From Candidatus Omnitrophota bacterium (GTDB lineage: Bacteria; Omnitrophota; Gorgyraeia; Aquiviventales; Aquiviventaceae), in NCBI GenBank assembly GCA_016180575.1, contig JACPAY010000007.1, positions 1,457 to 65,456 of the forward strand: a DNA stretch of 64,000 bases, read 5' to 3'. The number at the start of each line of letters is the position of its first letter. Positions within the stretch are counted from its first letter, which is position 1. The notes beneath the pieces are model-generated. The model ran no database searches, was not told where the DNA came from, and saw only the letters and a program-made list of their open reading frames with translations. Below, in pieces: positions 7,109 through 60,161 of this stretch. Both the position numbers and the translations under genes were made by a program.

Positions 7109-7575
7109 TGGACGTCTCCACGATCCCCGCCATGCCGGGCGCCCGCCACCGGCGCAAACGCGTGGGGCGGGGCATCGGATCGGGCCACGGGAAGACCTCG
7201 ACGCGCGGCCAGAAGGGTCAGCGGGCCCGGACCGGCGAGGGCAAGCGGCCCGGGTTCGAGGGGGGGCGCACCCCGCTCATCCGCCGCCTGCCCAAGCGGG
7301 GGATGCGCTACAAGGCGACGGGGCATACGTCCGCCGTTGAAATCGTCAACGTGAGCCAGCTCAACCGCTGCGAAGGGGGAGAGCGGGTCACCCCGGAGCG
7401 CCTGAAGGCGCTCGGCCTCATCAACGATCCGGCCCGGCGGGTCAAGCTGCTGGGCGACGGGACGCTGACCAAGCCGCTGACGATCGTCGTGCACGAGATC
7501 AGCGCCTCCGCGAAGGACAAGGTGCTCAAGGCGGGCGGCGCGGTCGAGCTCATTGACAAGCCACCCACGCGGTGA
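7108..7575 (+). CDS. rplO: 50S ribosomal protein L15
   Basis: In-frame ATG 7108 overlapping the rpsE stop; RKRVGRGIGSGHGKTSTRGQKGQ block typical of L15. Confidence 0.95.
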   Translation: MDVSTIPAMPGARHRRKRVGRGIGSGHGKTSTRGQKGQRARTGEGKRPGFEGGRTPLIRRLPKRGMRYKATGHTSAVEIVNVSQLNRCEGGERVTPERLKALGLINDPARRVKLLGDGTLTKPLTIVVHEISASAKDKVLKAGGAVELIDKPPTR

Positions 7576-8933
7576 TGTTCCGGCTCCTGAGCGCGCTCGT
7601 CAACGCCTGGAGCATCCCCGAGCTGCGGCGGAAGCTCTCCTTCACGCTGGGGATGCTGGCCATCTACGAGGTCGGCATCTTCATCCCGGTCCCCGGGATC
7701 AACGGGAAGGAGCTGGGGCGCATCTTCGACCAGCTGGCGGCGACGAGCGGCGGCGGGCTGCTCAACCTGCTGGACATGTTCACCGGCGGGGCGCTCTCCC
7801 GGGCGACCGTCTTCGCGCTGGGGATCATGCCGTACATCAGCGCGACGATCATCGTGGAGACGCTGCTGGCCACGGCGATCCCGGCGCTGGAGAAGCTGCG
7901 CAAGGAGGGCATGACCGGGTACCGCAAGCTCCACCAGTACTCGCGCTACGCGACGGTGCTGCTGGCGGTGGTCAACTCGTTCATGTACGCGATCCTGCTC
8001 GAGAAGGCGATCCCGGCGCAGTTTCACACCCAGATCGTGCTCTCGCCGGGCCTGGGCTTTCGCCTCCTGACCGTGCTCACGATGACCGGCGGGATGGCGC
8101 TCATCATGTGGCTCGCCGAGCAGATCACCGAGCGCGGGATCGGCAACGGGATGAGCCTCCTGATGACCGCCTCGATCGTCGGCCGGATCCCGCTGGCGGT
8201 CCGGGATATCGCGGTCCAGCTGGGGCCCGGGGGCATGAACCAGTCGCCGATCGCCCCGCTGGCGTTCGCCTTCATGGGGGCGTTCCTCGTCGTCATCGTC
8301 ATGGCGGTCATCTTCGTCGAGCAGGGCCAGCGGCGCATCCCGGTCCAGTATGCCCGGCGTGTGGTCGGCCGGAAGATCTACGGCGGGCAGAGCACCTACC
8401 TGCCGCTGCGGGTGAACAGCGGGGGGGTGCTGCCGATCATCTTCGCGGTGTCGCTGCTGTACTTCCCGATCCAGGTGGCCGGGTTCGTGCCGCAGCTCTC
8501 CGGGCTGATGGAGTGGTTCTCGCGGACGTCGCTCGCGTTCAACCTGCTGTATGCGGTGCTCATCGTCTTCTTCACGTACTTCAGCACCGCGCTGACGGCG
8601 CACCAGTTCCTGGACGCGGCCGACCAGATGAAGAAGGTGGGGGCGTTCATCCCCGGCATCCGGCCCGGGCAGCCGACCGTCGAGTACCTCGACCAGACGC
8701 TGACCCGGGTGACGTTCGTGGCGGCGATCTACCTCGTGGCGATCGCGATCCTGCCGGACGTCATCATGGCGTGGATGAAGATCCCGGCGCGCGTGGCGGG
8801 GTTCTTCGGCGGCACGAGCCTGTTGATCGTCGTCGGCGTCACCCTGGACACCATGAAGCAGATCGAGTCGCACCTGCTCATGCGCCACTATGAGGGGTTC
8901 TTCAAAACCGGCCGGATGAAGGGCCGGCGGTAG
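7575..8933 (+). CDS. secY: protein translocase subunit SecY
   Basis: Track ORF 7572..8933 (GTG 7572, ATG 7575); multi-pass membrane protein with IPELRRKLSFTLGMLAIYEVG… and spc-operon position. Confidence 0.96.
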   Translation: MFRLLSALVNAWSIPELRRKLSFTLGMLAIYEVGIFIPVPGINGKELGRIFDQLAATSGGGLLNLLDMFTGGALSRATVFALGIMPYISATIIVETLLATAIPALEKLRKEGMTGYRKLHQYSRYATVLLAVVNSFMYAILLEKAIPAQFHTQIVLSPGLGFRLLTVLTMTGGMALIMWLAEQITERGIGNGMSLLMTASIVGRIPLAVRDIAVQLGPGGMNQSPIAPLAFAFMGAFLVVIVMAVIFVEQGQRRIPVQYARRVVGRKIYGGQSTYLPLRVNSGGVLPIIFAVSLLYFPIQVAGFVPQLSGLMEWFSRTSLAFNLLYAVLIVFFTYFSTALTAHQFLDAADQMKKVGAFIPGIRPGQPTVEYLDQTLTRVTFVAAIYLVAIAILPDVIMAWMKIPARVAGFFGGTSLLIVVGVTLDTMKQIESHLLMRHYEGFFKTGRMKGRR

Positions 8934-8935
8934 CC

Positions 8936-9595
8936 GTGCGCATCGTCCTCCTCGGCCCCCCGGGGGCGGGCAAGGGGTCGTTGGCGTCGCTCTATGACAT
9001 CCGTCTGGGGATCGCGCACCTCTCGACCGGGGAGATCTTCCGGCAGGAGATCGCGCGCCGCAGCGCCCTCGGACGCCGGGTGCGGCGCTACGTCCTGAGC
9101 GGCCGCCTGGTGCCTGATGCCCTGGTGGTCGAGGTGATGGCGGCCAGGCTTCGGCGCGCGCGGGCTGCGGGGTTCGTCCTGGACGGCTTCCCCCGGACCG
9201 CGGGACAGGCGCAGGGGCTGGACCGGGTCCTCGCGCGGCAGTGGCGGCGGCTCGACGCGGCCGTCTATCTGATCTCGCCGCAGCCGCTGCTGGTCAAGCG
9301 GCTCTCCGGGCGCCGGGTGTGCAGCCGGTGCGGAGCCAACTACCACCTGCGCACCATGCGGCCCAAGCGGGCGGGCCGCTGCGACCGCTGCGGCGGGCGG
9401 CTGACGGTCCGGAAGGACGACCAGCCCCGCATGATCCGCAAGCGGCTGGCGGTGGACCGGAAGGCGGCCGCGCCGCTTGTGGCCTATTACCGGCGCCGCG
9501 GGCTGCTCCATCGGGTCAACGGGGTCGGCAACGTGGAGACGGTGTATCGCCGGACGCTGGCGCTCTTTCGCCGTCATCGCTGGCTGCCATCATGA
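8936..9595 (+). CDS. adk: adenylate kinase (Cys4 lid)
   Basis: Track ORF; GPPGAGKG P-loop; lid CSRCG…CDRCGG. Confidence 0.94.
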   Translation: MRIVLLGPPGAGKGSLASLYDIRLGIAHLSTGEIFRQEIARRSALGRRVRRYVLSGRLVPDALVVEVMAARLRRARAAGFVLDGFPRTAGQAQGLDRVLARQWRRLDAAVYLISPQPLLVKRLSGRRVCSRCGANYHLRTMRPKRAGRCDRCGGRLTVRKDDQPRMIRKRLAVDRKAAAPLVAYYRRRGLLHRVNGVGNVETVYRRTLALFRRHRWLPS

Positions 9596-9598
9596 GGC

Positions 9599-10372
9599 AT
9601 GATCGAGCTCAAAACCCCGAACGAACTTGACGCCATGCGGCGGATCGGACGGATCGTGGCGGGATTGCTTGCGCACCTGGCCGGCTTGGTGCGCCCGGGC
9701 CTGAAGACGAAGGCGCTGGACGAGGCGGCGGCGGCGTACCTCGCGCGCGCCGGGGCCCGCCCGGCCTTCCTGGGCTACCGCGGATTCCCGGCGACCATCT
9801 GCGTCTCGGTGAATGAAGAAGTGGTCCACGGGATCCCGGGGCCGCGGACGATCCGCGACGGCGACCTGGTGAGCCTCGATGTCGGCGGGATCCTCGACGG
9901 CTGGTACGGGGATGCCGCCACCACGGTGCCGGTGGGCTCGCCGTCGCCGCAGGCGCTGCGTCTGACCCGGACCGCCCGGCGGGCGCTCGAGGCGGGCATC
10001 GCTCGCGCCGTCGTCGGCAACCGGGTGTCGGACATCTCGCATGCCGTGCAGAAGGTCGTGGAGGGGGAGGGGTTCCACGTCGTCCGGGAGTTCGTGGGGC
10101 ACGGGATCGGACACGCCCTGCATGAGGATCCGCCGATCCCCAACTTCGGACCGCCGCACATCGGGCCGCGCCTGGCGGCGGGGATGTGCCTTGCGATCGA
10201 ACCGATGGTGACGGTCGGCCGCTCCGAGGTCGAGATTCTGCGCGACGGCTGGACCGCCGTGACCCGGGACCGCTCGCTCGCCGCCCATTTCGAGCACACG
10301 GTCGCGGTGACCGAGCGGGGCCCGGAGGTGCTCACCGCGACGGGGCACGATGCCGAAGGAAGACCTGATTGA
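9599..10372 (+). CDS. map: type I methionine aminopeptidase
   Basis: Track ORF; MetAP-like sequence (…[23 protein letters not shown]…[12 protein letters not shown]…FVGHGIG…HFEHTVAVT). Confidence 0.95.
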
Positions 10373-42763: not shown

Positions 42764-43774
42764 ATGGCTCATGACCGCCTATCCGTCGCCGTCCTGGGGG
42801 ACGGCGGGTGGGGCACCACGCTCGCCATTCACCTCCACCGCCTCGGCCACCGCGTGCAGCTCTGGGGCGCGTTTCCGGACTACGTCCGGACGCTCGCGCG
42901 GCGGCGCGAGAATGTGAAGTTTCTCCCCGGCATCCCCATCCCGCGCTCCCTGCCGATCACGGCCGACCTCCCGGACGCCGTCGCGGAGGCCCGGCTCGTC
43001 ATCCTCGCCGTCCCTTCCCAATACCTCCGGCGGGTCGCCAGGCGCCTCCGGCCGTCCCTCCGGCCTGCGGCGGCCCTCCTCAGCGTGGCCAAAGGCCTGG
43101 AGCGGGGCAGCCTGAAGCGGATGTCGCAGGTCATCCATGAGGAGCTCGGCCCTGTTCGGCTCGCCGCCTTGTCCGGGCCGAACATCGCCTCGGAGATCGC
43201 CACCGGACACCCGGCCAGCTCCGTCGTCGCGTCCCACGACCCCGCGCTCGCGGCCGCCGTGCAGCGCATGCTGATGAACGAGCGGTTCCGCATCTACACC
43301 GCCGCCGATGTCGCCGGCGTGGAGCTCGGAGGGGCGCTGAAGAACCCGATTGCGATCGCCGCCGGGATTGGAGACGGACTGGGGTTCGGCGCCAACGCCA
43401 AGGCGGCCCTCATCACGCGAGGGGTGGTGGAGATGGCGCGGCTCGGCCAGGCGCTCGGCGCCAGGGAAGCGACGTTCTGGGGCTTGAGCGGTCTCGGCGA
43501 CCTCGTAACCACGTGCCTGGCCGGCCGGAACCGCTGGCTGGGCGAGCAGCTGGGACGGGGACGCCCGCTGCGTGTGGTCCTGCGTTCCACCCCGATGGTT
43601 ATCGAGGGGGTGGAGACCGCCAGGGCCGCCGCGACCCTGGGCCGCCGCCACGGCATCGAGCTGCCCATCATCGAGCAGGTGAACGCCATCCTCTTCCGCC
43701 GCCGGGCCCCCCGGCAGGCGCTCCAAGCGCTGATGCGCCGCAGCGGCAAGGCCGAGTCCGCCACCCCGCGTTGA
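42764..43774 (+). CDS. gpsA: NAD(P)H-dependent glycerol-3-phosphate dehydrogenase
   Basis: Track ORF; VAVLGDGGWGTTLA Rossmann start, LSGPNIASEIA, GALKNPIAIAAGI blocks. Confidence 0.94.
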   Translation: MAHDRLSVAVLGDGGWGTTLAIHLHRLGHRVQLWGAFPDYVRTLARRRENVKFLPGIPIPRSLPITADLPDAVAEARLVILAVPSQYLRRVARRLRPSLRPAAALLSVAKGLERGSLKRMSQVIHEELGPVRLAALSGPNIASEIATGHPASSVVASHDPALAAAVQRMLMNERFRIYTAADVAGVELGGALKNPIAIAAGIGDGLGFGANAKAALITRGVVEMARLGQALGAREATFWGLSGLGDLVTTCLAGRNRWLGEQLGRGRPLRVVLRSTPMVIEGVETARAAATLGRRHGIELPIIEQVNAILFRRRAPRQALQALMRRSGKAESATPR

Positions 43775-43800
43775 CCCTCCCGGCATCGCCCTGCTACAAT
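43771..43800 (+). promoter_or_regulatory. sigma70-type promoter for tRNA-Pro (TTGACC-18 nt-TACAAT)
   Basis: Hexamers at 43771-43776 and 43795-43800; the tRNA starts about 11 nt downstream. Confidence 0.5.
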
Positions 43801-43810
43801 GATACGCTCT

Positions 43811-43887
43811 CGGGGCGTAGCGTAGCTTGGTAGCGCGCCTGAATGGGGTTCAGGAGGTCGGGAGTTCAAATCTCCCCGCCCCGACCA
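43811..43887 (+). tRNA. tRNA-Pro (anticodon GGG), CCA encoded
   Basis: Hand-folded cloverleaf: acceptor CGGGGCG/CGCCCCG, anticodon arm CCTGA-ATGGGGT-TCAGG, T-arm GGGAG-TTCAAAT-CTCCC, discriminator A plus CCA. Confidence 0.9.
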
Positions 43888-43895
43888 ACAACTCA

Positions 43896-45212
43896 ATGCC
43901 ACAGACCACCACCATCAACGTCGGGCTCATCGGCGTCGGCACGGTCGGCGCCGGCGTGGCGCGCGCGCTCCTCGAGAAGAGACGGATGCTCGAGCAGCGC
44001 ATCGGCGCCCGCCTGGTGCTGCGCCGGGCCTGCGACAAGGAGTTCCGCCGCCGGCGGGGCGTCCGCCTGCCCCCCTCGGTGACCACCACCGACGCGTCCA
44101 AGGTCCTGCGCGACCCGGACATCCACGTCGTCGTGGAGCTCATCGGCGGGATCGAGCCGGCGCGGACGCTCATCCTGGAGGCGCTGCGCCGCGGCAAGCA
44201 CGTGGTGACCGCGAACAAGGCGCTCCTGGCGCACGCGGGCCGGGAGCTGTTCGCGGCCGCGCGGCGGGCGAACGTGGACCTCTACTTCGAAGCGGCGGTG
44301 GGCGGCGGCATCCCCATCATCAAGGCGCTCCGGGAAGGGCTCATCGCCAACGAGCTGGACGCCATCCTGGGCATCGTCAACGGCACGTCGAACTACGTGC
44401 TCACCCAGATGCGCGAGAAGCGGCTGAGCTTCCACGAGGCGCTGCTGGAGGCCAAGCACCACGGCTACGCGGAACGCAACCCGGCGCTCGATATCAGCGG
44501 AGGCGACGCAGCGCACAAGCTCGCGATCCTCACGCTGCTCGGCTTCGGCGTGCAGGTGCGCCTCTCTGACATCCACGTGGAGGGCATCAGCAGCATCTCC
44601 CAGGCGGACATCCAGTACGCGGACGAGCTGGGCTACTGCATCAAGCCGCTCGCCATCGCCAAGCAGGTGGACCACGAGCTGGAGCTCCGGGTCCACCCCA
44701 CGCTGCTGGCCAAGACCCACCTCCTCGCCAATGTCAACGGGGTCTACAATGCCGTCTACGTGCACGGCGATATGGTCGGGGCGGAGCTGTTCTACGGCCG
44801 CGGGGCGGGGCAGGGCCCGGCCGCGAGCTCCGTGGTCTCCGACATCGCCGATATCGCCCGGAACATCGTCACCGGGATAGCCCCGCGCATGCCGCTCCTG
44901 CCCCACCGGCACCGCGGCATCCGCCGGTTGCGGCGGATGGGCGCGGTGGAAACCCGCTACTACATGCGCTTCATGGCGACGGACAAGCCCGGCGTGCTGG
45001 CCCGCATCGCCGGGGTGCTCGGCCGTCACCACATCTCCATCGCGAGCGTCCACCAGAAGGAGCGCCGGGCGGCGCGGATCGTGCCGGTCGTCATGATGAC
45101 CCACGAGGCCCGGGAGGCCGACATGCGCCGCGCGCTCCAGGCCATCGACCGCCTGGGGTTCGTGAAGCACCCCACCGTCGCGATCCGGACCGAAGCCCCG
45201 CGCTACAAATGA
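43896..45212 (+). CDS. hom: homoserine dehydrogenase
   Basis: In-frame ATG 43896 (the track ORF extension 43827 overlaps the tRNA); GLIGVGTVGAGV…, ANKALLA…, C-terminal ACT-like domain. Confidence 0.94.
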   Translation: MPQTTTINVGLIGVGTVGAGVARALLEKRRMLEQRIGARLVLRRACDKEFRRRRGVRLPPSVTTTDASKVLRDPDIHVVVELIGGIEPARTLILEALRRGKHVVTANKALLAHAGRELFAAARRANVDLYFEAAVGGGIPIIKALREGLIANELDAILGIVNGTSNYVLTQMREKRLSFHEALLEAKHHGYAERNPALDISGGDAAHKLAILTLLGFGVQVRLSDIHVEGISSISQADIQYADELGYCIKPLAIAKQVDHELELRVHPTLLAKTHLLANVNGVYNAVYVHGDMVGAELFYGRGAGQGPAASSVVSDIADIARNIVTGIAPRMPLLPHRHRGIRRLRRMGAVETRYYMRFMATDKPGVLARIAGVLGRHHISIASVHQKERRAARIVPVVMMTHEAREADMRRALQAIDRLGFVKHPTVAIRTEAPRYK

Positions 45213-45249
45213 GGAGCAGGAAACAGGGAACCGGACCCGGGACTATTGG
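45209..45249 (+). repeat. R4 element, truncated copy (hom stop / thrC start)
   Basis: ATGAGGAGCAGGAAACAGGGAACCGGACCCGGGACTATTGG; left stem arm missing. Confidence 0.75.
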
Positions 45250-46312
45250 AAACCGGCAATGGCCCGGGGTGATTGAACGCTATCGCGCCTACCTTCCGGT
45301 CTCCCCCGCGACCCCCATCATCACGCTGCTGGAGGGGAACACCCCGCTCATCCACAGCCGCGCGCTGAGCCGCCGGTTGGGGCGGGGGATGTCGGTGTAC
45401 CTCAAGTACGAGGGGATGAACCCCACCGGCTCGTTCAAGGACCGCGGGATGACCGTGGCGATCTCGAAGGCGGTCGAGGCGAAGTCGGTCGCGGTCCTGT
45501 GCGCCTCCACCGGCAACACCTCCGCCTCGGCCAGCGCCTATGCGGCGCGGGCGGGGCTGCGCTCCATCGTCCTCATCCCGAGCGGCGCCGTGGCGCTGGG
45601 CAAGCTCTCGCAGGCGCTCATCCACGGGGCGCGCGTGGTGGTCGTGGACGCGAACTTCGACGCGTGCCTGGCGCTCGTGAAGTCGCTGGCCCAGGGGCAC
45701 CCCGTCACGCTGGTCAACTCCATCAACCCGCACCGCATCGAGGGCCAGAAGACGTGCGCCTTCGAGATCTGCGACGCGCTCGGCCGGGCGCCGGACTACC
45801 ACGTGACGCCCGTGGGCAACGCGGGCAACATCACGGCGCAGTGGAAGGGCTACACGGAGTACCGGCGGCGCGGGCGCATCACGCAGCGGCCCGCCATGCT
45901 GGGCTTTCAGGCCGAGGGCGCCGCCCCCCTGGTGCAGGGCCGCGTCATTAAGCACCCGCGCACGATCGCCACCGCCATCCGGATCGGCAACCCGGCCAGC
46001 TGGCAGGGGGCGCTCGCCGCGGCCGAGGAATCGGGCGGCGCCATCCAGGCGGTGAGCGACCGGCAGATCCTGGAGGCCTACCGCCTCCTCGCGTCAGAGG
46101 ACGGGGTGTTCGTGGAGCCGGCGTCGGCCGCCTCGGTCGCCGGCCTGCTGCGCCTGGCGCAGGCGGGATATTTCAAGAAGCGGGCGACCATCGTCTGCAT
46201 CCTCACCGGACACGGGCTCAAGGACCCCGAGCGCGCCATCAAGAGCATCCGCCTGGCGCGTCCCCTCCCGCCGTCGCTCTCCGCCATCACCAAAGCCGCC
46301 GGCCTGAAGTAA
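45209..46312 (+). CDS. thrC: threonine synthase (start either ATG 45209 inside repeat R4 or GTG 45269)
   Basis: Track ORF; GVIERYRAYLPV…TLLEGNTPL…NPTGSFKDRGM PLP-lysine motif. Confidence 0.92.
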   Translation: MRSRKQGTGPGTIGNRQWPGVIERYRAYLPVSPATPIITLLEGNTPLIHSRALSRRLGRGMSVYLKYEGMNPTGSFKDRGMTVAISKAVEAKSVAVLCASTGNTSASASAYAARAGLRSIVLIPSGAVALGKLSQALIHGARVVVVDANFDACLALVKSLAQGHPVTLVNSINPHRIEGQKTCAFEICDALGRAPDYHVTPVGNAGNITAQWKGYTEYRRRGRITQRPAMLGFQAEGAAPLVQGRVIKHPRTIATAIRIGNPASWQGALAAAEESGGAIQAVSDRQILEAYRLLASEDGVFVEPASAASVAGLLRLAQAGYFKKRATIVCILTGHGLKDPERAIKSIRLARPLPPSLSAITKAAGLK

Positions 46313-46352
46313 CCCGCCGGCGCCCAAAAGGGTATATAATAAAACTTCTTGC

Positions 46353-47504
46353 ATGAAATACGTCATCTTGCGCTGTGAGGATGGCGCCCCCGCGAGCGAG
46401 CGAACCGCCGCGCTGCTGGAGGGCGCGAAAACCCTGCACCTGCACGAGCTCGCGCAGGCGGGCGCCGCCGGGCTCATCCGGCCGCACGACCGCGCCGCCC
46501 GCGGCTCGCCGCTTGACCGGGCGCGGGTCCATCGCGCCCTCCTCGGGCTGGATCCCCTTGACGCGGACGCGGCTCCCGGCTGCTGCTATGCGGACGCCGC
46601 GGGCCTCGCGCTCGAGCCCGACGAGACGGCCTGGTGCTGCGAGCTCATCACGCAGCGGGACGGCCGGGTCATCGACCCCACCGCAGGGCGCATCCCGACG
46701 AAAGAGAGCGCCCCGCTCCTCCAGGCGCTGGACGCCGAGCTGGGCTCTGACGCGCGGCGATGGAAGCCGGGGACCGGCTCGCACCACGTGTTCCTCGCCC
46801 GCGAGCCGGCGCTCGCCGCGGATGCGCGGCGCGCCGTCGGACCGCCTGAGCCGCTGGTGGGGCGGGCGTGGAAGCGGCACCTGCCTGCCGGCGCGACGGG
46901 CGAAGCCCTGCGGGCTCTCCTCGAACGGGCCTCCGCCGTGCTCGAGGCGCACCCGGTCAACCGGGTCCGGGTGGACCTCGGCGAGAACCCGGCGAACATG
47001 GTCTGGCTCTGGGGGGCGGGCGCCGCCGGGCCGTCGCGGCCGTTCGCCGAGCGCACCGGCCTCACCGGGACCATCGTCTCGAACAGCTTCTTGCTGCGAG
47101 GGCTCTCGCACCGTCTCGGCCTCGGGTGGGCGGAGGGCCCTGCCTCGTTCACAGAGGCGGCCCTCCAGCGGCTATGGAAAGCGGCAGCCCCCCTGCTCGA
47201 GCGCCAGGACCTGCTCTACGTGCACCTCCGGGTGGAGAGCGGCGACCCGGTCGAGCGGCTGTGCGCCATGGAGCGCATCGACCAGCTCCTGCTCAAGCCA
47301 TTGACCGACCTGCTGCCGCGCCTCGGCCCGTGGCGGCTGCTGGCGGCGGTCGATGACCGCGCGCTGCGCGCGGCGCCGTTCATCGCGATCGGCACCGGCC
47401 TGCCGCGGCAGCCGGCCGCCTCGCTCGACGCGGAGCGCCTCGCCGAGAGCCCGCTCGCGTTTCCGGAGGGCGCCGGCTCGTTCGCCTGGCTCACGCAGGC
47501 CTGA
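46353..47504 (+). CDS. divergent cofactor-independent phosphoglycerate mutase (ApgM)-like protein; candidate alternative homoserine kinase
   Basis: Track ORF; overall ApgM-like layout (MKYVIL…DG…, HPVNRVRVDLGENPANMVWLWGAG, LYVHL…) located between thrC and lysC. Confidence 0.5.
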   Translation: MKYVILRCEDGAPASERTAALLEGAKTLHLHELAQAGAAGLIRPHDRAARGSPLDRARVHRALLGLDPLDADAAPGCCYADAAGLALEPDETAWCCELITQRDGRVIDPTAGRIPTKESAPLLQALDAELGSDARRWKPGTGSHHVFLAREPALAADARRAVGPPEPLVGRAWKRHLPAGATGEALRALLERASAVLEAHPVNRVRVDLGENPANMVWLWGAGAAGPSRPFAERTGLTGTIVSNSFLLRGLSHRLGLGWAEGPASFTEAALQRLWKAAAPLLERQDLLYVHLRVESGDPVERLCAMERIDQLLLKPLTDLLPRLGPWRLLAAVDDRALRAAPFIAIGTGLPRQPAASLDAERLAESPLAFPEGAGSFAWLTQA

Positions 47505-47508
47505 CGCG

Positions 47509-48774
47509 ATGACGCGCAAGCTCGTCGTCCAGAAATACGGCGGCAGCTCCGTCGCCAACCCGGAGCGGATCACGCGGGTCGCGCAGCGGGTCGTGGACAC
47601 CAAGCGCGCCGGCGCGGACGTGGTCGTGGTGGTCTCCGCGCTGGGCGACACGACCGACGAGCTCGTCCAGCTTGCCGCCCAGGTCAGCCGCAACCCCGCC
47701 GAGCGGGAGCTCGACATGCTCATGGCGACCGGCGAGCAGGTGTCCGTCGCCCTGCTGGCGATGGCCATCCACGAGCTGGGCGAGGATGCGGTCTCGTTCA
47801 CCGGCGCCCAGGTCGGCATCCTGACGGACGGGACGCACACGCGGGCGAAGCTGGTGGACATCAACACCCAGCGCATCGTGCGGGAGCTGGCCAAAAGCCG
47901 CATCGTCATCGTCGCCGGGTTCCAGGGCGTGAACCTCAACCAGGACATCACGACGCTGGGGCGGGGCGGATCGGACCTCACTGCCGTGGCGCTCGCCAAG
48001 GCGCTGCAGGCGGACGTCTGCGAGATCTTCACGGACGTCGAGGGCATCTACACCGCGGACCCGCGCATCGTGCCGCAGGCGCGCAAGCTCCCGGCGATCA
48101 GCTACGACGAGATGCTGGAGATGGCGTCGCTCGGCGCCCAGGTGATGCAGGCGCGGTCCATCTTCGTCGCCAAGCGGTTCGACATCCCCATCCACGTCCG
48201 GTCGAGCTTCTCACTACGGGAGGGCACGATGATCCAGCGGTCGGTCAAGGCCATGGAAGACATCGTCGTCAGCGGCGTGACGCTGCAGAAGGACGAGGCC
48301 AAGGTCACGATCCGGGACGTGCCGGACCGGCCCGGCATGGCGGCGGAGATCTTCCGCGAGCTGGCGGCCAAGGGGATCAACGTGGACATGATTGTGCAGA
48401 ACGTCAGCCGCGAGGGCTCGACGGACCTCTCGTTCACCGTCGTCAAGAGCGACCTGCCGGGGACCCTGCGCGTCACCCGGAGCGTCTCGCACCGCATCGG
48501 GGCGGGCGAGGTCACCACCGACGAGGGGGTGGCCAAGCTCTCCATCGTCGGGATCGGGATGCGCAGCCACTCCGGGGTGGCGGCGAAGATGTTCGAGGCG
48601 ATGGCCCGCGAGCGCATCAACATCGAGATGATCTCCACCTCCGAGATCAAGATCTCCTGCGTCATCCGCAAGGCCCATGCCGAGCGGGCGGTCCGGGCGG
48701 TCCACCGCGCCTTCGGCCTCGGCCATGCCCCCGCCGCGGCCGCCAGGGCGCGCCGGGTCTCCGCCCGGGCCTGA
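47509..48774 (+). CDS. lysC: aspartate kinase
   Basis: In-frame ATG 47509 in track ORF 47353..48774; VVQKYGGSSV, VVVVSALGDTTDEL, two C-terminal ACT domains. Confidence 0.95.
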   Translation: MTRKLVVQKYGGSSVANPERITRVAQRVVDTKRAGADVVVVVSALGDTTDELVQLAAQVSRNPAERELDMLMATGEQVSVALLAMAIHELGEDAVSFTGAQVGILTDGTHTRAKLVDINTQRIVRELAKSRIVIVAGFQGVNLNQDITTLGRGGSDLTAVALAKALQADVCEIFTDVEGIYTADPRIVPQARKLPAISYDEMLEMASLGAQVMQARSIFVAKRFDIPIHVRSSFSLREGTMIQRSVKAMEDIVVSGVTLQKDEAKVTIRDVPDRPGMAAEIFRELAAKGINVDMIVQNVSREGSTDLSFTVVKSDLPGTLRVTRSVSHRIGAGEVTTDEGVAKLSIVGIGMRSHSGVAAKMFEAMARERINIEMISTSEIKISCVIRKAHAERAVRAVHRAFGLGHAPAAAARARRVSARA

Positions 48775-48813: not shown

Positions 48814-50382
48814 ATGCCCCAGATTGAACTCTACGACACGACGCTCCGCGACGGGGCGCAGACCGAGGGGATCTCCTACTCGGTGCAGGACAAGCTGCGC
48901 ATCACGGAGCAGCTGGACGCCCTCGGCGTGCACACCATCGAGGGCGGCTGGCCGGGCTCCAACCCCAAGGACGCGGAGTTCTTCCGGAAGGCCAGGCGGC
49001 TCTCGCTGCGCTCGGCGAAGCTGGCCGCCTTCGGCTCAACCCGGCGCGCCTCCGCCGGCGCGGCGAAGGACCCCAATTTGCGCGCGCTGCTCGCCGCCGA
49101 GACGCCGGTCGTGACCATCTTCGGCAAGAGCTGGGACCTGCACGTGCGCGACGTGCTCCGGGTCAGCCTGGAGGAGAACCTCCGCCTCATCGAGGACTCG
49201 GTCGCCTGGCTTGCGCGGCACGGCCGCCGCGTCGTGTACGACGCCGAGCACTTCTTCGACGGCTACCGGGACAACCCGGAGTACGCGCTGCGCACCCTCC
49301 AGGCGGCGGTGGCCGGCGGCGCGGAGACGCTCGCCCTGTGCGACACCAACGGGGGCAGCCTCCCCAGCCAGATCACCGAGGGCATCAACGCGGTCCAGCG
49401 GCGGTTCTCGGCGCCGCTCGGCATCCACGCGCACAACGACAGCGACCTCGCAGCGGCCAACTCGGTGGCCGCGGTGCAGGCGGGCTGCCGCCAGGTGCAG
49501 GGGACGGTCAACGGCTATGGCGAGCGGTGCGGCAACGCCAACCTCGTCTCGCTCATCGCCATCCTCAAGCTGAAGCTGGGGATCGACTGCCTGCCGGACG
49601 CCAAGCTGCGCGAGCTGACCGAGGTCGCGCACTTCGTGGCCGAGGTCAGCAACATGGCGCACGACGCCCACCAGCCGTTCGTGGGCGAGACCGCCTTCGC
49701 GCACAAGGGCGGGGTGCACGTCAACGCCGTGATGAAGAACCCCCGCACCTACGAGCACATCGAGCCGGCGACGGTCGGCAACCAGCGCCGGATCCTCGTC
49801 TCGGAGCTCTCCGGGCGCTCCTCGCTCGTCTTCAAGGCGAAAGACCTGGCGCTGGACCTGACCCGCGACACCCCCCAGGCCAAGCGGATGCTCAGGCTGC
49901 TCCAGCAGCTCGAGCACCGGGGCTACCACTTCGAGGCGGCGGAGGGGTCGCTTGAGCTCCTGCTCAAGCGCCAGCTCAAACGGTTCAAGCCGTTCTTCAC
50001 CCTCGGCGGGTTCCGCATCATCATCGAGAAGCGGGACCACAAGCTGATGTCCGAGGCGACCATCAAGGTCCACGTCGGCAAGGTCACCGAGCAGACCGCG
50101 GCGGAGGGGGACGGGCCGGTGAACGCGCTCGACAACGCCATCCGCAAGGCGCTGCTGAAGTTCTACCCGTCGCTTGCGCGGATGCACCTGACCGACTTCA
50201 AGGTCCGCGTGCTCGACGAGAAGGCCGCCACCGCGGCCCGCGTGCGCGTGCTCATCCAATCGCAGGATGAGCACGAGTCCTGGGGCACGGTCGGCGTCTC
50301 CGAGAACATCATCGAGGCGAGCTGGCAGGCGCTCGTGGACTCGATCGAGTACAAGCTGCTCAAAGACCGGGCCCGTCGCTGA
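48814..50382 (+). CDS. cimA: (R)-citramalate synthase / 2-isopropylmalate synthase family
   Basis: Track ORF, 522 aa; [20 protein letters not shown]…, [13 protein letters not shown]…, C-terminal LeuA-dimer-like regulatory domain. Confidence 0.8.
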
Positions 50383-50399: not shown

Positions 50400-53219
50400 A
50401 TGTCTGCGCTCCCCCCCCAGTACAACCCCAAGGACGTCGAGGAAGCCCGCTACGCGTGGTGGGAATCCCAGGGCTTCTTCCGCGCCGACCCGGACCCCAA
50501 GCGGAAGCCCTACACCATCGTGATCCCGCCGCCCAACGTGACGGGCATCCTCCACATGGGCCACGCGCTCAACAACACCATCCAGGACATCCTCATCCGG
50601 TTTGCGCGCATGCAGGGGTTCAACGCCCTCTGGGTCCCGGGCACCGACCATGCCGGGATCGCCACCCAAAACGTCGTGGAGAAGGCGCTGGCCAAGGAAG
50701 GGAAGCGCCGGCAGGACCTGGGGCGCGAGGCGTTCCTCAAGCGCGTCTGGGAGTGGAAGGAGCAGTACGGCAACACGATCCTGTACCAGCTCAAGCGCCT
50801 CGGCGCCTCCTGCGACTGGCGGCGGACCCGGTTCACGATGGACGAGGGGCTCTCCGAAGCGGTCCTCGAGGTGTTCGTCCGGCTCTATGAGAAGGGGCTG
50901 ATCTACCGCGGGAACTACATCATCAACTGGTGCCCCCGGTGCCAGACCGCGCTCGCCGACGAGGAGGCGCCGCGCACCGAGACCCAGGGCAAGCTCTACC
51001 ACATCAAATACCCCATTTTGAGACAGGGGACAGGGGACAGGGGACAGGGGAAGACCACACCTGTCTCCCGTCCCATGTCTCCTGTCTCAGCTTTCATCGA
51101 GGTGGCCACGACCCGGCCGGAGACGATGCTGGGCGACACCGCCGTCGCCGTCCACCCGAAGGACAAGCGGTACAAAACGCTCATCGGAAAGCACGCCATC
51201 CTCCCGCTCGTGAACCGGAAGCTCGTCATCATCGCGGACGAGGCGGTGGACCGGGAGTTCGGCACCGGGGCGGTCAAGGTGACGCCGGCCCACGACCCGG
51301 TGGACTTCCAGCTCGGGAAGAAGCACAAGCTCGAGTTCATCAACGTGATGACCGACGACGCGAAGATGACCAATGTGCCGAAGCCCTACGAGGGGCTCGA
51401 CCGGCTCGACTGCCGCAGCAAGCTCATCGTGGACCTCGAGCAGCAGGGGTTCCTCGGCCGGATCGACGAGCACGTGCACAACGTCGGCCACTGCTACCGC
51501 TGCCACACGGCGGTGGAGCCGCGCCTCTCCCCGCAGTGGTTCGTGAAGATGAAGCCGCTCGCCGAGCCGGCGATCAAGGCGGTCAAGCAAGGGACGATTA
51601 AGTTCGTCCCGGCGCGGTGGACCAAGGTGTACCTCAACTGGATGGAGAACATCCAGGACTGGTGCATCAGCCGCCAGATCTGGTGGGGCCACCGGCTGCC
51701 CGTCTACTACTGCGAAAGCTGCCGGCGGAGACAGGAGACAGGAGACAGGAGACAAGCAAAGGCCCAACGTGTCTCCCGTCCCATGTCCCATGTCTCAGAA
51801 CCCGGTGTCATTGTTTCAAAGACGCGGCCGGAGCGGTGCCCAACCTGCGGCGGGACCGAGCTGGCGCAGGACGAGGACGTGCTGGACACGTGGTTCTCCT
51901 CCTGGCTGTGGCCGTTCTCGACGCTCGGCTGGCCGAAGAAGACTAAAGACCTCGCCTACTTCTATCCGACCGACACGCTCGTCACCGCGCAGGAGATCAT
52001 CTTCTTCTGGGTCGCCCGGATGGTCATGGCCGGCTACTTCTGCATGAAGCGGCCGCCGTTCACCACGGTCTCCATCCACGGCACGGTGCGCGACATCACC
52101 GGCAAGAAGATGTCGAAATCGCTCGGCAACATCATCGACCCGCTCGAGATGATCGGCCGCTACGGCACCGACGCGCTGCGCTACACGCTGGTGACCGCCA
52201 CCGCCATCGGCCAGGACATCTTCCTCTCGGAGGAGCGGTTCGCCGCCGGCCGCAACTTCGCCAACAAGCTCTGGAACGCCACCCGCTTCGTGCTCGCGCA
52301 GGACGGAATCGAAAAGTACCGGGTACTTCCCAAAGCGGGAAAAGTACCCGGTACTTTTTCAGTAGCGGACCGGTGGATCCTCTCGCGGCTCCAGCAGACC
52401 ACCGCCCGCGTCACGAAGTCGCTCGAGGCGTCCCTGTTCAATGACGCGGCCAGCGCGCTCTACGGCTTCCTCTGGCACGACTTCTGCGACTGGTACGTGG
52501 AGATCGCCAAGCACGTGCCGGCCGAGCAGCAGCCCGCCACCCGCGCGATCCTGCGGCACGTCCTTGAGCAGGCGCTGCGGCTGCTCCACCCGGTCATGCC
52601 CTTCGTGACCGAGGAGCTGTGGCAGCATCTGAGACAGGGAACCACCAAGCCACCTGTCTCTCGTCTCATGTCTCATGTCCCAATTTCGATTATGAAGGCG
52701 GAGTGGCCGAAGGTGGAGAAGCGTCTCATCGACCGCGAGGCGGAGCGGCTCTTCGAGCGGCTCCAGGCGGTCATCACCGCCATCCGGACCACGCGGTCTG
52801 AGCTCAACGTCCCGGTGGAGAGCCGGCCGCCGGTGCATCTGGCATCGCCGCAGGCCGAGGTCCGGATGTTTTTCGAGATCCACCGCCCGCTCCTCCAGCA
52901 GCTGGCCGCGCTGGGCGACATCAGCGTCGAGGCCAAGCGGCAGGCGGTGCGGCACGCGGCGGCCATGGTGGTGGACGGGGTCGAAGTCCTGATGCCGCTG
53001 GAAGGGCTCATCGACCCGGCGAAGGAGCGCGCGCGGCTCCAGCAGCGGCTCGACGACCTCACGCGGCAGAGGGCCCAGGCGGAGGCCAGGCTCAAGGACC
53101 GGCAGTTCACGACCAAAGCGCCCGCCGAGGTCGTGGAGCAGACCAAGACCCGGCGCGCCGAGCTCCAGGACACCGCCAAGAAGGTGTCCGAGCACCTGGC
53201 CGTGCTCCAGGGGATGTGA
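50400..53219 (+). CDS. valS: valine--tRNA ligase carrying four in-frame repeat insertions
   Basis: Track ORF, 939 aa; HIGH-type PPNVTGILHMGH, KMSKS, TTRPETMLGD, C-terminal coiled coil. Confidence 0.96.
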   Translation: MSALPPQYNPKDVEEARYAWWESQGFFRADPDPKRKPYTIVIPPPNVTGILHMGHALNNTIQDILIRFARMQGFNALWVPGTDHAGIATQNVVEKALAKEGKRRQDLGREAFLKRVWEWKEQYGNTILYQLKRLGASCDWRRTRFTMDEGLSEAVLEVFVRLYEKGLIYRGNYIINWCPRCQTALADEEAPRTETQGKLYHIKYPILRQGTGDRGQGKTTPVSRPMSPVSAFIEVATTRPETMLGDTAVAVHPKDKRYKTLIGKHAILPLVNRKLVIIADEAVDREFGTGAVKVTPAHDPVDFQLGKKHKLEFINVMTDDAKMTNVPKPYEGLDRLDCRSKLIVDLEQQGFLGRIDEHVHNVGHCYRCHTAVEPRLSPQWFVKMKPLAEPAIKAVKQGTIKFVPARWTKVYLNWMENIQDWCISRQIWWGHRLPVYYCESCRRRQETGDRRQAKAQRVSRPMSHVSEPGVIVSKTRPERCPTCGGTELAQDEDVLDTWFSSWLWPFSTLGWPKKTKDLAYFYPTDTLVTAQEIIFFWVARMVMAGYFCMKRPPFTTVSIHGTVRDITGKKMSKSLGNIIDPLEMIGRYGTDALRYTLVTATAIGQDIFLSEERFAAGRNFANKLWNATRFVLAQDGIEKYRVLPKAGKVPGTFSVADRWILSRLQQTTARVTKSLEASLFNDAASALYGFLWHDFCDWYVEIAKHVPAEQQPATRAILRHVLEQALRLLHPVMPFVTEELWQHLRQGTTKPPVSRLMSHVPISIMKAEWPKVEKRLIDREAERLFERLQAVITAIRTTRSELNVPVESRPPVHLASPQAEVRMFFEIHRPLLQQLAALGDISVEAKRQAVRHAAAMVVDGVEVLMPLEGLIDPAKERARLQQRLDDLTRQRAQAEARLKDRQFTTKAPAEVVEQTKTRRAELQDTAKKVSEHLAVLQGM
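51019..51089 (+). repeat. R1 palindromic element, in frame in valS (copy a)
   Basis: TGAGACAGGGGACAGGGGACAGGGGACAGGGGA-AGACCACAC-CTGTCTCCCGTCCCATGTCTCCTGTCTCA; translated LRQGTGDRGQGKTTPVSRPMSPVS. Confidence 0.9.
51727..51796 (+). repeat. R1 palindromic element, in frame in valS (copy b)
   Basis: GAGACAGGAGACAGGAGACAGGAGACA-AGCAAAGGCCCAAC-GTGTCTCCCGTCCCATGTCCCATGTCTCA; translated RQETGDRRQAKAQRVSRPMSHVS. Confidence 0.9.
52311..52360 (+). repeat. R6 palindrome in frame in valS
   Basis: GAAAAGTACCGGGTACTT-13 nt-AAGTACCCGGTACTTTTTC, about an 18-bp stem; translated EKYRVLPKAGKVPGTF. Confidence 0.75.
52630..52680 (+). repeat. R1 palindromic element, short copy in frame in valS (copy c)
   Basis: TGAGACAGGGA-ACCACCAAGCCAC-CTGTCTCTCGTCTCATGTCTCATGTCC; translated LRQGTTKPPVSRLMSHVP. 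Confidence 0.8.
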
Positions 53220-54100
53220 TGTCCGGCCTCAGCCGGGAGGCGGTCCTATCCCTCATCCGTCTCGCGCTGCGCGAGGATCAGGCCGGCCGCGACATCACCT
53301 CAACGGCCGTGCTGCCGGCAACCGCCCGCGCCCGGGCGCGGCTTATCGCGCGGGCGCCGGGCATCCTGGCCGGCGGCCAGGCGGCCGGGTGGGTGTTCCG
53401 CGCGGTGGACCGTCGGGTGCGATACCGCGTCAGACTGCATGACGGGACGGCGACGCGGCCAGGACAGGTGGTCGCGAACCTGGACGGGCCGGCTCGCTCC
53501 ATCTTCGCGGCGGAGCGGACCGCGCTGAACCTGCTGGGCCATCTCTCCGGCATCGCGACGCTCACCCACGCTTATGCCCGACGGGTCCGCGGCACCCGGG
53601 CCAAGGTCTACGACACCCGCAAGACGCTGCCGGGGCTGCGGGCCCTTGAAAAGCACGCGGTCCGCGCAGGCGGGGGGCGCAGCCACCGCGGCAGCCTGGC
53701 CGAGGCGGTCCTCATCAAGACGAACCATCTGAAGGCGCTGGGACAGGGGACAGGGGACAGGGGACAGGGGATCCAAAACGCCATTAAGCGGGCGAAACGC
53801 CGGTTCCCTGGCAAGTTCGTTGAAGTCGAAGTGAGAACGGTGCGCCAATTTCAATCGGCACTGACTGCGCAACCTGACGCCATTTTACTCGACAACATGT
53901 CTCTCCATGACGTCCGACGCGCCGTTCACCTGTCCCATGTCTCGCGTCCCTTGTCTCAAAAGCGGCCTCTGTTGGAGGTTTCAGGAGGCATTACCCTCAA
54001 AAATGTCCGGGCCTACGCCCGCGCGGGCGCGGACCGCATCTCCATCGGCCGGCTGACCCACTCGGCGCCTGCGCTGGACGTCTCGCTGGAAATCGTATGA
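53216..54100 (+). CDS. nadC: nicotinate-nucleotide diphosphorylase (carboxylating) carrying both R1 repeat arms in frame
   Basis: Track ORF; AERTALNLLGHLSGIAT, YDTRKTLPGLR, LIKTNH, EVEV, LLDNM, EVSGGI blocks. Confidence 0.92.
   Translation: MMSGLSREAVLSLIRLALREDQAGRDITSTAVLPATARARARLIARAPGILAGGQAAGWVFRAVDRRVRYRVRLHDGTATRPGQVVANLDGPARSIFAAERTALNLLGHLSGIATLTHAYARRVRGTRAKVYDTRKTLPGLRALEKHAVRAGGGRSHRGSLAEAVLIKTNHLKALGQGTGDRGQGIQNAIKRAKRRFPGKFVEVEVRTVRQFQSALTAQPDAILLDNMSLHDVRRAVHLSHVSRPLSQKRPLLEVSGGITLKNVRAYARAGADRISIGRLTHSAPALDVSLEIV
53741..53770 (+). repeat. R1 left arm alone, in frame in nadC
   Basis: GGACAGGGGACAGGGGACAGGGGACAGGGG; translated GQGTGDRGQG. Confidence 0.85.
53927..53958 (+). 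repeat. R1 right arm alone, in frame in nadC
   Basis: CACCTGTCCCATGTCTCGCGTCCCTTGTCTCA; translated HLSHVSRPLSQ. Confidence 0.8.
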
Positions 54101-57835: not shown

Positions 57836-57862
57836 TTAGCACTCTAAATACAGGATTGCTAA
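57836..57862 (+). promoter_or_regulatory. CIRCE operator (HrcA binding site)
   Basis: TTAGCACTC-N9-GATTGCTAA, one mismatch to the consensus TTAGCACTC-N9-GAGTGCTAA, between the promoter and groES. Confidence 0.8.
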
Positions 57863-57876
57863 CAGGAGGGAACGGG

Positions 57877-59825
<1,949 letters not shown>

Positions 59826-59843: not shown

Positions 59844-60161
59844 ATGGCCACCGCAACCGCAAGCGCAAGCAGCCTGAAGCTGAAGCCGATCGGCGACCGC
59901 GTGATTGTCCAGCGCCTGGGCTCGGCCGAGAAAACCAAGAGCGGCCTCTACCTGCCGGACTCGGCGCAGGAGAAGCCCCAGGAAGGGAAGGTCATCGCGG
60001 TCGGCTCCGGCAAGACGCTGAAGAACGGGAAGGTCATCCCGCTCTCGGTCAAGCCGGGCGACAAGATCATCTTCGGCAAGTACTCAGGCTCGGAGATCAA
60101 AGTTGACGACAAGGAGTACGTCTTCCTCAACGAGGACGACATCCTCGCCATCGTCACCTAG
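59844..60161 (+). CDS. co-chaperonin GroES (copy 2, downstream of groEL)
   Basis: Track ORF, 105 aa; LKPIGDRVIVQ…EKTKSGLYLPDSAQEKPQEGKVIAVG; about 55-60 % identical to copy 1 by eye; extra MATATASASS N-terminus. Confidence 0.9.
   Translation: MATATASASSLKLKPIGDRVIVQRLGSAEKTKSGLYLPDSAQEKPQEGKVIAVGSGKTLKNGKVIPLSVKPGDKIIFGKYSGSEIKVDDKEYVFLNEDDILAIVT

Follow-up and report, generated by a model that had tools for sequence, protein, structure and literature searches.

What phosphorylates homoserine in an aspartate-family gene cluster that carries no recognisable homoserine kinase? The question is raised by a stretch of 64,000 nucleotides from a Candidatus Omnitrophota bacterium (GenBank assembly GCA_016180575.1, contig JACPAY010000007.1, positions 1,457 to 65,456 of the forward strand), which we call the window. 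In this stretch the gene for a 383-amino acid protein, here called X, lies between thrC and lysC, where a homoserine kinase gene (thrB) would be expected. The initial annotation, made from the sequence alone, had offered two readings, namely that X acts as an alternative ThrB or that it has diverged further from such a protein. Of these, the latter stands, both by the place of X in the operon and by profile-profile alignment: X derives from HomK, a homoserine kinase of the ApgM type. The former finds no support in the sequence, in which the nucleophilic Ser, the specificity Glu and the metal ligands are gone or changed, with the exception of one Asp. Judging from these residues, we consider it roughly an even call that X is a HomK-derived pseudoenzyme with a non-catalytic role and that the kinase is encoded elsewhere.

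Family, fold and operon position of X

The open reading frame proved to be real, with the bounds given for it exact on the plus strand, and its neighbours hom, thrC, lysC and cimA were as first described (NF004976, TIGR00260, NF005155 and TIGR00977, respectively).

46353..47504, plus strand: gene X, open reading frame of 383 amino acids, exact bounds, between thrC and lysC

The absence of a homoserine kinase from the cluster was also borne out, since no ThrB-like sequence was found in the window by tblastn, phmmer or Pfam scans. With E. coli ThrB as the query, tblastn at E ≤ 1e-5 gave no match either in the window or in X-clade flanks totalling about 150 kb, and the best match in the same sequences by phmmer --max had an E value of 1.5. 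Pfam scans of the remaining window genes detected no GHMP, APH-fold or HAD candidate. These searches covered the window and flanks of up to 10 kb in relatives, a small part of the genome.

X matched a single Pfam family, PF10143 (PhosphMutase), at 67.7 bits, and the metalloenzyme domain PF01676 was undetected in X by Pfam scan. Its scores on three NCBIfam models were all below the cutoff: 166 bits on TIGR00306 (cutoff 320), 151 bits on NF003242 (cutoff 426) and 143.2 bits on TIGR02535, the 'proposed homoserine kinase' (cutoff 446.3). An AlphaFold2 model computed from an alignment of the X family had a pLDDT (predicted local distance difference test) of 92.1 and a pTM (predicted template modelling score) of 0.92, and its best Foldseek matches were 3KD8, 3IDD and 2ZKT (E values of 6e-24 to 5e-23, TM-scores of 0.55-0.62). 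The predicted fold of X is that of the two-domain ApgM/HomK proteins, with an alkaline-phosphatase-like core and an inserted cap domain. The overall ApgM-type layout that had been recognised by eye is therefore confirmed by PF10143, the 166 bits on TIGR00306, the model and its structural matches. Alignment of the X family with canonical HomK by hhalign gave a probability of 100% and an E value of 1.6e-62 over 383 columns at 31% identity, so that descent of X from the HomK family is not in doubt. Searches with Pfam, NCBIfam, HMMER against the PDB and Foldseek returned ApgM/HomK as the only family, motif or structural neighbours of X, and no P-loop or CX5R phosphatase motif was seen in X by eye.

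At NCBI a protein identical to X is listed as 'hypothetical protein HYT90_03515' of Candidatus Omnitrophica bacterium. A protein search recovered more than 120 full-length relatives with 52-81% identity, each with PF10143 as its sole Pfam match. The family has a sharp edge: when 1.84 billion representatives were searched exhaustively with HMMER, about 15 full-length clusters (at 50% identity) scored 250-502 bits and everything else 174 bits or less. About 60 positions are invariant across 26 members of the family.

To place X in its genomic setting, we used 80 loci retrieved in one scan of species-representative genomes with the pattern of the long motif N203-G221 (listed below). Nearly all are from Omnitrophota metagenome-assembled genomes (MAGs), with a few carrying other labels, and the best match to X among them was 61% identical. 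As determined by tblastn with the window proteins, the order gpsA-hom-thrC-[X or HomK]-lysC-cimA-valS-nadC recurs across the phylum at about 80 loci. X-type proteins are found at eight of these (L008-L015, all in GC-rich MAGs; 40-61% identity to X), and in the window and every X-clade locus hom, thrC, X and lysC are on one strand. At the remaining 72 loci the slot holds a protein about 30% identical to X in which the full canonical set D, S, E, D, H, D, H, H is present; three sampled examples (L016, L037 and L060) scored 537-556 bits on TIGR02535, above its cutoff. X thus occupies the syntenic slot of HomK and is its positional orthologue in one clade. That clade was monophyletic in 100 of 100 neighbour-joining bootstraps. 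Support for any sister group was 13% or less, and for this reason the tree cannot separate divergence in situ from acquisition of a foreign degenerate copy; synteny favours divergence in situ.

The active site of X and its remodelling

Our canonical reference was P0145 (513.7 bits on TIGR02535), with D11, S58, E298, D301, H305, D344, H345 and H354 as its functional residues. E298 lies three residues before the Asp of the DEAGH motif, and corresponds to the Lys of 'HFKPTD' in the phosphoglycerate mutase structure 2ZKT. The changes in X were read from HMMER alignments to PDB chains, MAFFT alignments and hhalign. The segments concerned, all on the plus strand, are the following.

46371..46382, plus strand: R7-C8-E9-D10; Glu9 at the first metal-binding Asp (D11), R7 instead of Val, and the next residues 'GMx' deleted
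46512..46520, plus strand: L54-D55-R56; site of the phospho-accepting Ser (S58 of P0145, S56 of BT2402), with no Ser or Thr here
46632..46640, plus strand: W94-C95-C96; F-R-C in the cap domain of canonical HomK, with loss of an invariant Arg on the substrate side
46959..47015, plus strand: N203-G221 (NRVRVDLGENPANMVWLWG); pattern NxVRxDLxENPANxxWxWG, the one long motif unchanged from canonical HomK
47223..47246, plus strand: H291-D298 (HLRVESGD); R293 on the HomK specificity Glu (E298 of P0145, E299 of BT2402)
47352..47360, plus strand: D334-D335-R336; Asp334 kept (D344 of P0145), Asp335 instead of the 'PDH' His (H345)

Five of the six metal ligands are lost as such in X. At the N-terminus, where the initial annotation had noted EDGAP for DGxxD, 'CEDGAP' aligns with 'xDGMxD' as had been read, with Glu9 at the position of the first metal Asp and a three-residue deletion. 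The five-residue DEAGH metal loop, which carries D301 and H305, is absent between Glu295 and Ser296 of X. A second loop, 'xTPxxxxTH', which holds the last metal His (H354), is deleted after D334-D335-R336, leaving an Asp-to-Glu change, a His-to-Asp change and two loop deletions. The nucleophile is also missing. A substitution near the catalytic Ser had been proposed from RGSPLD, and there is indeed one, but the detail was off: the Ser column falls on Arg56 or Leu54 and not on Ser52, a residue in a part of the family alignment that varies and is prone to indels. The Ser of the GSDTxH motif in 3KD8 and 2ZKT aligns with Arg56 by HMMER, in agreement with MAFFT, and with Leu54 by hhalign. The losses go well beyond those first noticed, as they also include the two loops with the His residues and the specificity Glu. 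X also has no Lys at the HFKPTD position that matches the substrate charge in phosphoglycerate mutases, and its sequence alignment to the archaeal cofactor-independent phosphoglycerate mutase (iPGM) structures ends ahead of the C-terminal metal motifs. Scored against both ApgM and HomK, X has not retained the full set of iPGM catalytic residues.

A comparison of alignment columns in 129 X-clade and 54 canonical sequences was used to determine how far the remodelling extends. Glu9 and Asp10 are invariant in the X clade and Arg7 is 98% conserved. Arg56 is 88% conserved, with E, S, G, L or P in the deepest branches, and the specificity position is not fixed, being Arg in 40% of the sequences. In P0145 numbering, the canonical invariants R77, E81, R97, R146, H169, D170, D249 and K312 have become Pro, Tyr, Cys95, His, Glu, Leu, Phe246 and Arg302 in X, respectively, and N99 and H115 are also lost. 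About ten polar residues of the HomK cap domain, invariant there and directed towards the cleft, have mostly given way to hydrophobic ones (Trp, Cys, Tyr, Phe, Pro or Leu) in X. The invariants found only in X are mostly aromatic residues or Cys (W94, C95, W137, W173, F246, W259, C304 and W379), together with R7 and R204; C8 and C96 are already present in canonical HomK. The N203-G221 motif is invariant in the X clade and in canonical HomK alike, and D108, G112, E118, H291, E307, D310, R328 and D334 are unchanged as well.

The change is specific to the X gene, because X-clade genomes keep only 39% of the phylum-invariant columns of the HomK slot compared to 95% for hom, 93% for thrC, 96% for lysC and 97% for cimA. 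Canonical Omnitrophota pairs with about 86% identity in lysC have 76% in HomK; for X-clade pairs, lysC identities of about 88% and 74% go with X identities of 52% and 39%. Between X and canonical HomK, a lysC identity of 63% goes with 29%, where about 60% would be expected for HomK. We also calculated ratios of nonsynonymous to synonymous substitution rates (dN/dS) with YN00 between the window and its closest relative with available nucleotide sequence (locus L089, 81% amino acid identity). The value for X was 0.087, compared to 0.015 for hom, 0.015 for lysC, 0.037 for thrC and 0.022 for cimA, and dN of X was four to five times that of hom and lysC. These sequence comparisons indicate that X is under purifying selection, yet with a lasting constraint roughly two-fold looser than that on HomK. 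X therefore has in common with HomK/ThrB2/TIGR02535 the two-domain fold, the NxVRxDLxENPANxxWxWG motif and the slot beside hom and thrC, and differs in lacking the Ser, five of six metal ligands and the specificity Glu, in its score (143 vs 446 bits) and in evolving about twice as fast.

Degenerate HomK-like proteins were also found outside the X clade. Among 109 non-X representatives, all seven catalytic positions are retained in 33 and no more than four in 65, the latter count being inflated by ranking on a degenerate query and by clustering at 50% identity. Four such proteins are encoded in thr operons, in the arrangements hom-P0146-lysC, gpsA-hom-thrC-P0148-lysC, thrC-P0137-lysC and thrC-P0166, which shows that catalytic loss with retention of the gene is not unique to the X clade. 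In these proteins (P0146, P0137, P0148 and P0166, at loci L005, L007, L090 and L092) substitutions affect the Ser as well as several of the metal ligands. Like X, they sit in hom/thrC/lysC operons and have lost several catalytic positions; unlike X, they still match PF01676, score 250-440 bits on TIGR02535 and have mutated rather than deleted metal loops. P0146 has Asp for Ser and nevertheless scores 443 bits on NF003242, above the cutoff of that model. No supported grouping of the degenerate proteins with the X clade was obtained (bootstrap values of 13 or less). X is the most extreme form seen, given its deleted loops and undetectable PF01676.

Possible roles for a stripped but selected protein

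Two HomK proteins of the TIGR02535/ThrB2 type, BT2402 of Bacteroides thetaiotaomicron and DET_RS08350 of Dehalococcoides mccartyi, complement an E. coli thrB mutant and were given the name HomK; they are the only two for which complementation of thrB was done (10.1101/2024.10.14.618325). The features of a working HomK are the catalytic Ser, the residues of the two-metal site and a Glu (E299) where mutases have Lys (10.1101/2024.10.14.618325). The earlier GapMind paper held genetic evidence only (PMC7311316). The background given in the initial annotation, in which a Bacteroides ApgM-like protein encoded with thr genes was genetically implicated as a homoserine kinase, is thus correct and has gained in strength, BT2402 being needed for threonine synthesis and able to replace thrB in E. 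coli. Appendix 3 of the preprint (10.1101/2024.10.14.618325) lists BT2402 D274, H278 and H325 beside D346 and H347, which is off the linear order of the motifs. The canonical order is DxxxH, DH, H, as judged on P0145 and not on the BT2402 sequence; BT2402 E299 fits it, three residues before the DxxxH Asp. Because the BT2402 numbering does not fit the motif order of P0145, residues were mapped by motif and not by number.

In the alkaline-phosphatase superfamily, every characterised enzyme that we know of, including iPGM and HomK, has a metal centre and a Ser, Thr or formylglycine nucleophile. On this basis the HomK mechanism, phosphate transfer by way of a phospho-Ser and two metals, is predicted to be inoperable in X, which would make X a pseudoenzyme. 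In the scenario that we favour, X descends from Omnitrophota HomK, a member of the TIGR02535/ThrB2 branch of ApgM-type phosphoglycerate mutases, and has kept its slot and fold while the whole phosphotransfer machinery has been dismantled in one GC-rich Omnitrophota clade. Arg7 and Arg56 probably form a salt-bridge cluster with Glu9, Asp10, Asp334 and Asp335 at the former metal site, and the cleft that once took up the substrate is probably filled by the new aromatic side chains. The pseudoenzyme reading is in keeping with the aromatics that have taken the place of polar residues in the cleft, with the three active-site loops that have been deleted and with a constraint that has stayed relaxed. 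That the X gene is still functional is supported by its dN/dS of 0.087, the more than 120 intact reading frames, the roughly 60 invariant positions, the tight spacing to lysC and the confident fold. Its non-catalytic job would be tied to the aspartate-family operon, most likely as a binding or regulatory partner of aspartate kinase, the product translated adjacent to it, or of homoserine dehydrogenase, and the O-phosphohomoserine for the unchanged threonine synthase would come from a kinase encoded elsewhere in X-clade genomes. HisZ, an inactive HisRS (histidyl-tRNA synthetase) paralogue that regulates the ATP phosphoribosyltransferase (ATP-PRT) HisG, may serve as an analogy: dead-enzyme partners of this type have, like X, lost catalytic residues and been retained under selection beside the genes of their pathway. 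For HisZ the regulatory effect on HisG is known; for X the parallel is by analogy only.

Several observations weigh against a pseudoenzyme. A second homoserine kinase was not found in the window and the X-clade flanks, thrC is unchanged so that O-phosphohomoserine must have some source, and the logic of the operon singles out X as that source. R7, E9, D10, H60, R302, R308, R328 and D334 cluster, in sequence, round the old active site and could equally constitute a new catalytic site. Several other lineages also retain degenerate HomK-like proteins in their thr operons, and if all of these proteins are dead, each lineage needs a replacement kinase. The partner and the ligand of X, finally, are postulated only. 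X might then still be a homoserine phosphotransferase or kinase with a rebuilt active site, in which an all-carboxylate Mg site (E9, D10, D334 and D335) together with R7, R56, H60, R302, R308 and R328 would hand phosphate from a donor straight on to homoserine, with no phospho-Ser formed on the way. We consider this the main rival of the pseudoenzyme reading, though an unlikely one. X is found in the HomK slot beside hom and thrC at every X-clade locus, with thrC intact and no other kinase seen nearby; it is under purifying selection, has invariant charged residues at or beside former catalytic positions, and fully keeps the N203-G221 motif that is common only to the HomK branch. Set against this are the deleted metal loops and the missing nucleophile, an Arg at the nucleophile position that is not conserved in deep branches of the clade, the replacement, mostly by hydrophobic residues, of the specificity Glu and of R77, E81, R97, N99, H115, R146, H169, D170 and D249 (P0145 numbering), and the roughly two-fold faster evolution of X relative to HomK. 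Furthermore, we know of no metal-free or nucleophile-free transferase in the superfamily. The broader proposition that X, and perhaps other degenerate HomK-like proteins, makes O-phosphohomoserine without a Ser nucleophile and two-metal centre, or that X is an obligatory dead subunit that makes aspartate kinase or another partner the kinase, is likewise a tentative one.

It is more doubtful still that X has come to bind another ligand or catalyse another reaction, with no link to homoserine phosphorylation, and has been kept in the operon by inertia. The residues C78, C95, C96 and C304 and W94, W137, W173, W259 and W379 could provide a thiol-based or metal-cluster site, the new invariant residues absent from HomK form a coherent set, X is under purifying selection, and a conserved TATAAT upstream of X may give X-lysC-cimA a transcription start of its own. 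No neighbour by family, motif or structure was found for X beyond ApgM/HomK, however, and C8 and C96 are not new. In addition, the slot is strictly kept over deep divergence (74% identity in lysC, 39% in X) with tight or overlapping spacing to lysC, which argues for a role tied to the pathway. Complete loss of function, with X a decaying relic left after HomK became dispensable, would agree with accelerated evolution and a lost active site, but we regard it as very improbable in view of more than 120 intact full-length reading frames in a clade diverged to 39% X identity, the low dN/dS, the invariant positions and the confident fold prediction. There is next to no chance that X is an ordinary iPGM. 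Family members bear phosphoglycerate mutase names at the Joint Genome Institute (JGI), and the best PDB matches are archaeal iPGMs; archaeal-type ApgM (2ZKT, 3KD8 and 3IDD; TIGR00306) has the fold and the PF10143 cap domain in common with X. However, X falls far short of the iPGM models (166 vs 320 bits on TIGR00306, 151 vs 426 on NF003242), lacks the Ser nucleophile, the His ligands and the HFKPTD Lys for the substrate charge, has no detectable PF01676, is encoded in a thr operon and not in a glycolytic context, and has as its closest full-length relatives HomK-type proteins in thr operons. With the classical homoserine kinases (GHMP-type ThrB, APH-fold ThrB of TIGR00938, and the phosphoserine:homoserine phosphotransferase ThrH) X has in common the pathway position between hom and thrC; it differs in having no sequence or fold relationship to them, and E. 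coli ThrB matches nothing in the window.

The operon, its surroundings and what they mean

Family scans and ARAGORN gave the order gpsA-tRNAPro-hom-thrC-X-lysC-cimA-valS-nadC in the window. The genes flanking X are the following.

42764-43774: gpsA, NAD(P)H glycerol-3-phosphate dehydrogenase (family scans)
43811..43887, plus strand: tRNA-Pro(GGG), between gpsA and hom (ARAGORN)
43896..45212, plus strand: hom, homoserine dehydrogenase with an ACT domain (NF004976, 524 bits)
45209..46312, plus strand: thrC, threonine synthase (TIGR00260, 319 bits vs a cutoff of 167)
46335..46340, plus strand: TATAAT hexamer in the AT-rich spacer before X (genome of 70% GC), 12 nt ahead of the start codon
47509..48774, plus strand: lysC, monofunctional aspartate kinase with two ACT domains (NF005155, 593 bits), start ATG at 47509
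48814..50382, plus strand: cimA, citramalate synthase (TIGR00977, 771 bits)

The stop codon of hom overlaps the start of thrC (ATGA), and lysC starts 4 nt past the stop codon of X; at related loci these two genes share 1-4 nt. We placed the start of hom at the ATG at 43896 because tRNA-Pro occupies 43811-43887; a mechanically called hom reading frame starts at 43827 and reads through tRNA-Pro(GGG). A sigma-70-like match (TTGACC-18 nt-TACAAT, 43771-43800) lies ahead of the tRNA and is the only two-hexamer match between 42.6 and 50.5 kb. The two-hexamer promoter scan did not call the TATAAT at 46335-46340, and no −35 element was seen for it. The sequence (G)TATAAT is nonetheless present 9-14 nt upstream of the X start at five of eight X-clade loci, in genomes of 61-70% GC; it has a matching offset at L089, L001, L013 and L009, and at L089 lies within the 3' end of thrC. 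From its position and recurrence, this hexamer may be an internal −10 element that gives rise to a near-leaderless X-lysC-cimA transcript.

At many of the HomK-bearing loci (L016-L087), HomK is separated from both thrC and lysC by unrelated inserted genes, for example at 7168-9957 and 11217-12809 of L016, and the gap between HomK and lysC holds a membrane protein of about 530 amino acids. X-clade loci have no inserted genes in thrC-X-lysC. The inserted genes encode flavoprotein-like, nucleotidyltransferase, TPM and LemA-like proteins and a CstA-like membrane protein; as candidates for a lost partner they were rejected, being unrelated.

Two features further downstream in the window were also recorded. 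Palindromic elements of about 70 nt occur in frame within valS (51020-51090, 51728-51798 and 52651-52682) and within nadC (53740-53770 and 53927-53958). They each consist of a run of GGGACAG/GAGACAG heptamers followed by a complementary CTGTCTC/CTGTCCC run, add peptide stretches such as 'GTGDRGQGKTTPVSRPMSPVS' to the valS and nadC products, and resemble the palindromic mobile repeats, likewise in frame, of the Rickettsia RPE type. Two Cpn10 genes (57856-58164 and 59844-60161) are located on either side of a single Cpn60 gene (58179-59825) in a groES-groEL-groES arrangement.

Annotation of canonical HomK is itself affected by the relationship to mutases. The HomK proteins at L016, L037 and L060 score 551-570 bits on NF003242 ('cofactor-independent phosphoglycerate mutase') and 537-556 bits on TIGR02535, and P0145 too scores higher on NF003242 than on TIGR02535, despite the HomK-specific Glu in all four proteins. 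Because NF003242 outscores TIGR02535, automatic annotation probably calls HomK a phosphoglycerate mutase. Literature searches on degenerate or pseudoenzyme forms of HomK or iPGM, and on threonine synthesis in Omnitrophota, found nothing relevant.

Homoserine kinase is among the steps most often missing in genome-based predictions of amino acid biosynthesis, and it is still absent in 8% of prototrophs (GapMind 2026). For the X clade, labels assigned by homology or context, whether 'phosphoglycerate mutase' as at JGI or HomK, would be wrong or unsafe, and for many degenerate relatives they would be unsafe. The Omnitrophota offer a natural experiment, in which one phylum with an otherwise frozen operon includes one clade with a stripped yet selected HomK and an unchanged threonine synthase. 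Two outcomes present themselves: X-clade genomes encode an unrecognised kinase, or the HomK scaffold reacts in a way that has not been described. If X did make O-phosphohomoserine, alone or as the dead subunit of a partner, either version would be a further, mechanistically new solution to the homoserine kinase step.

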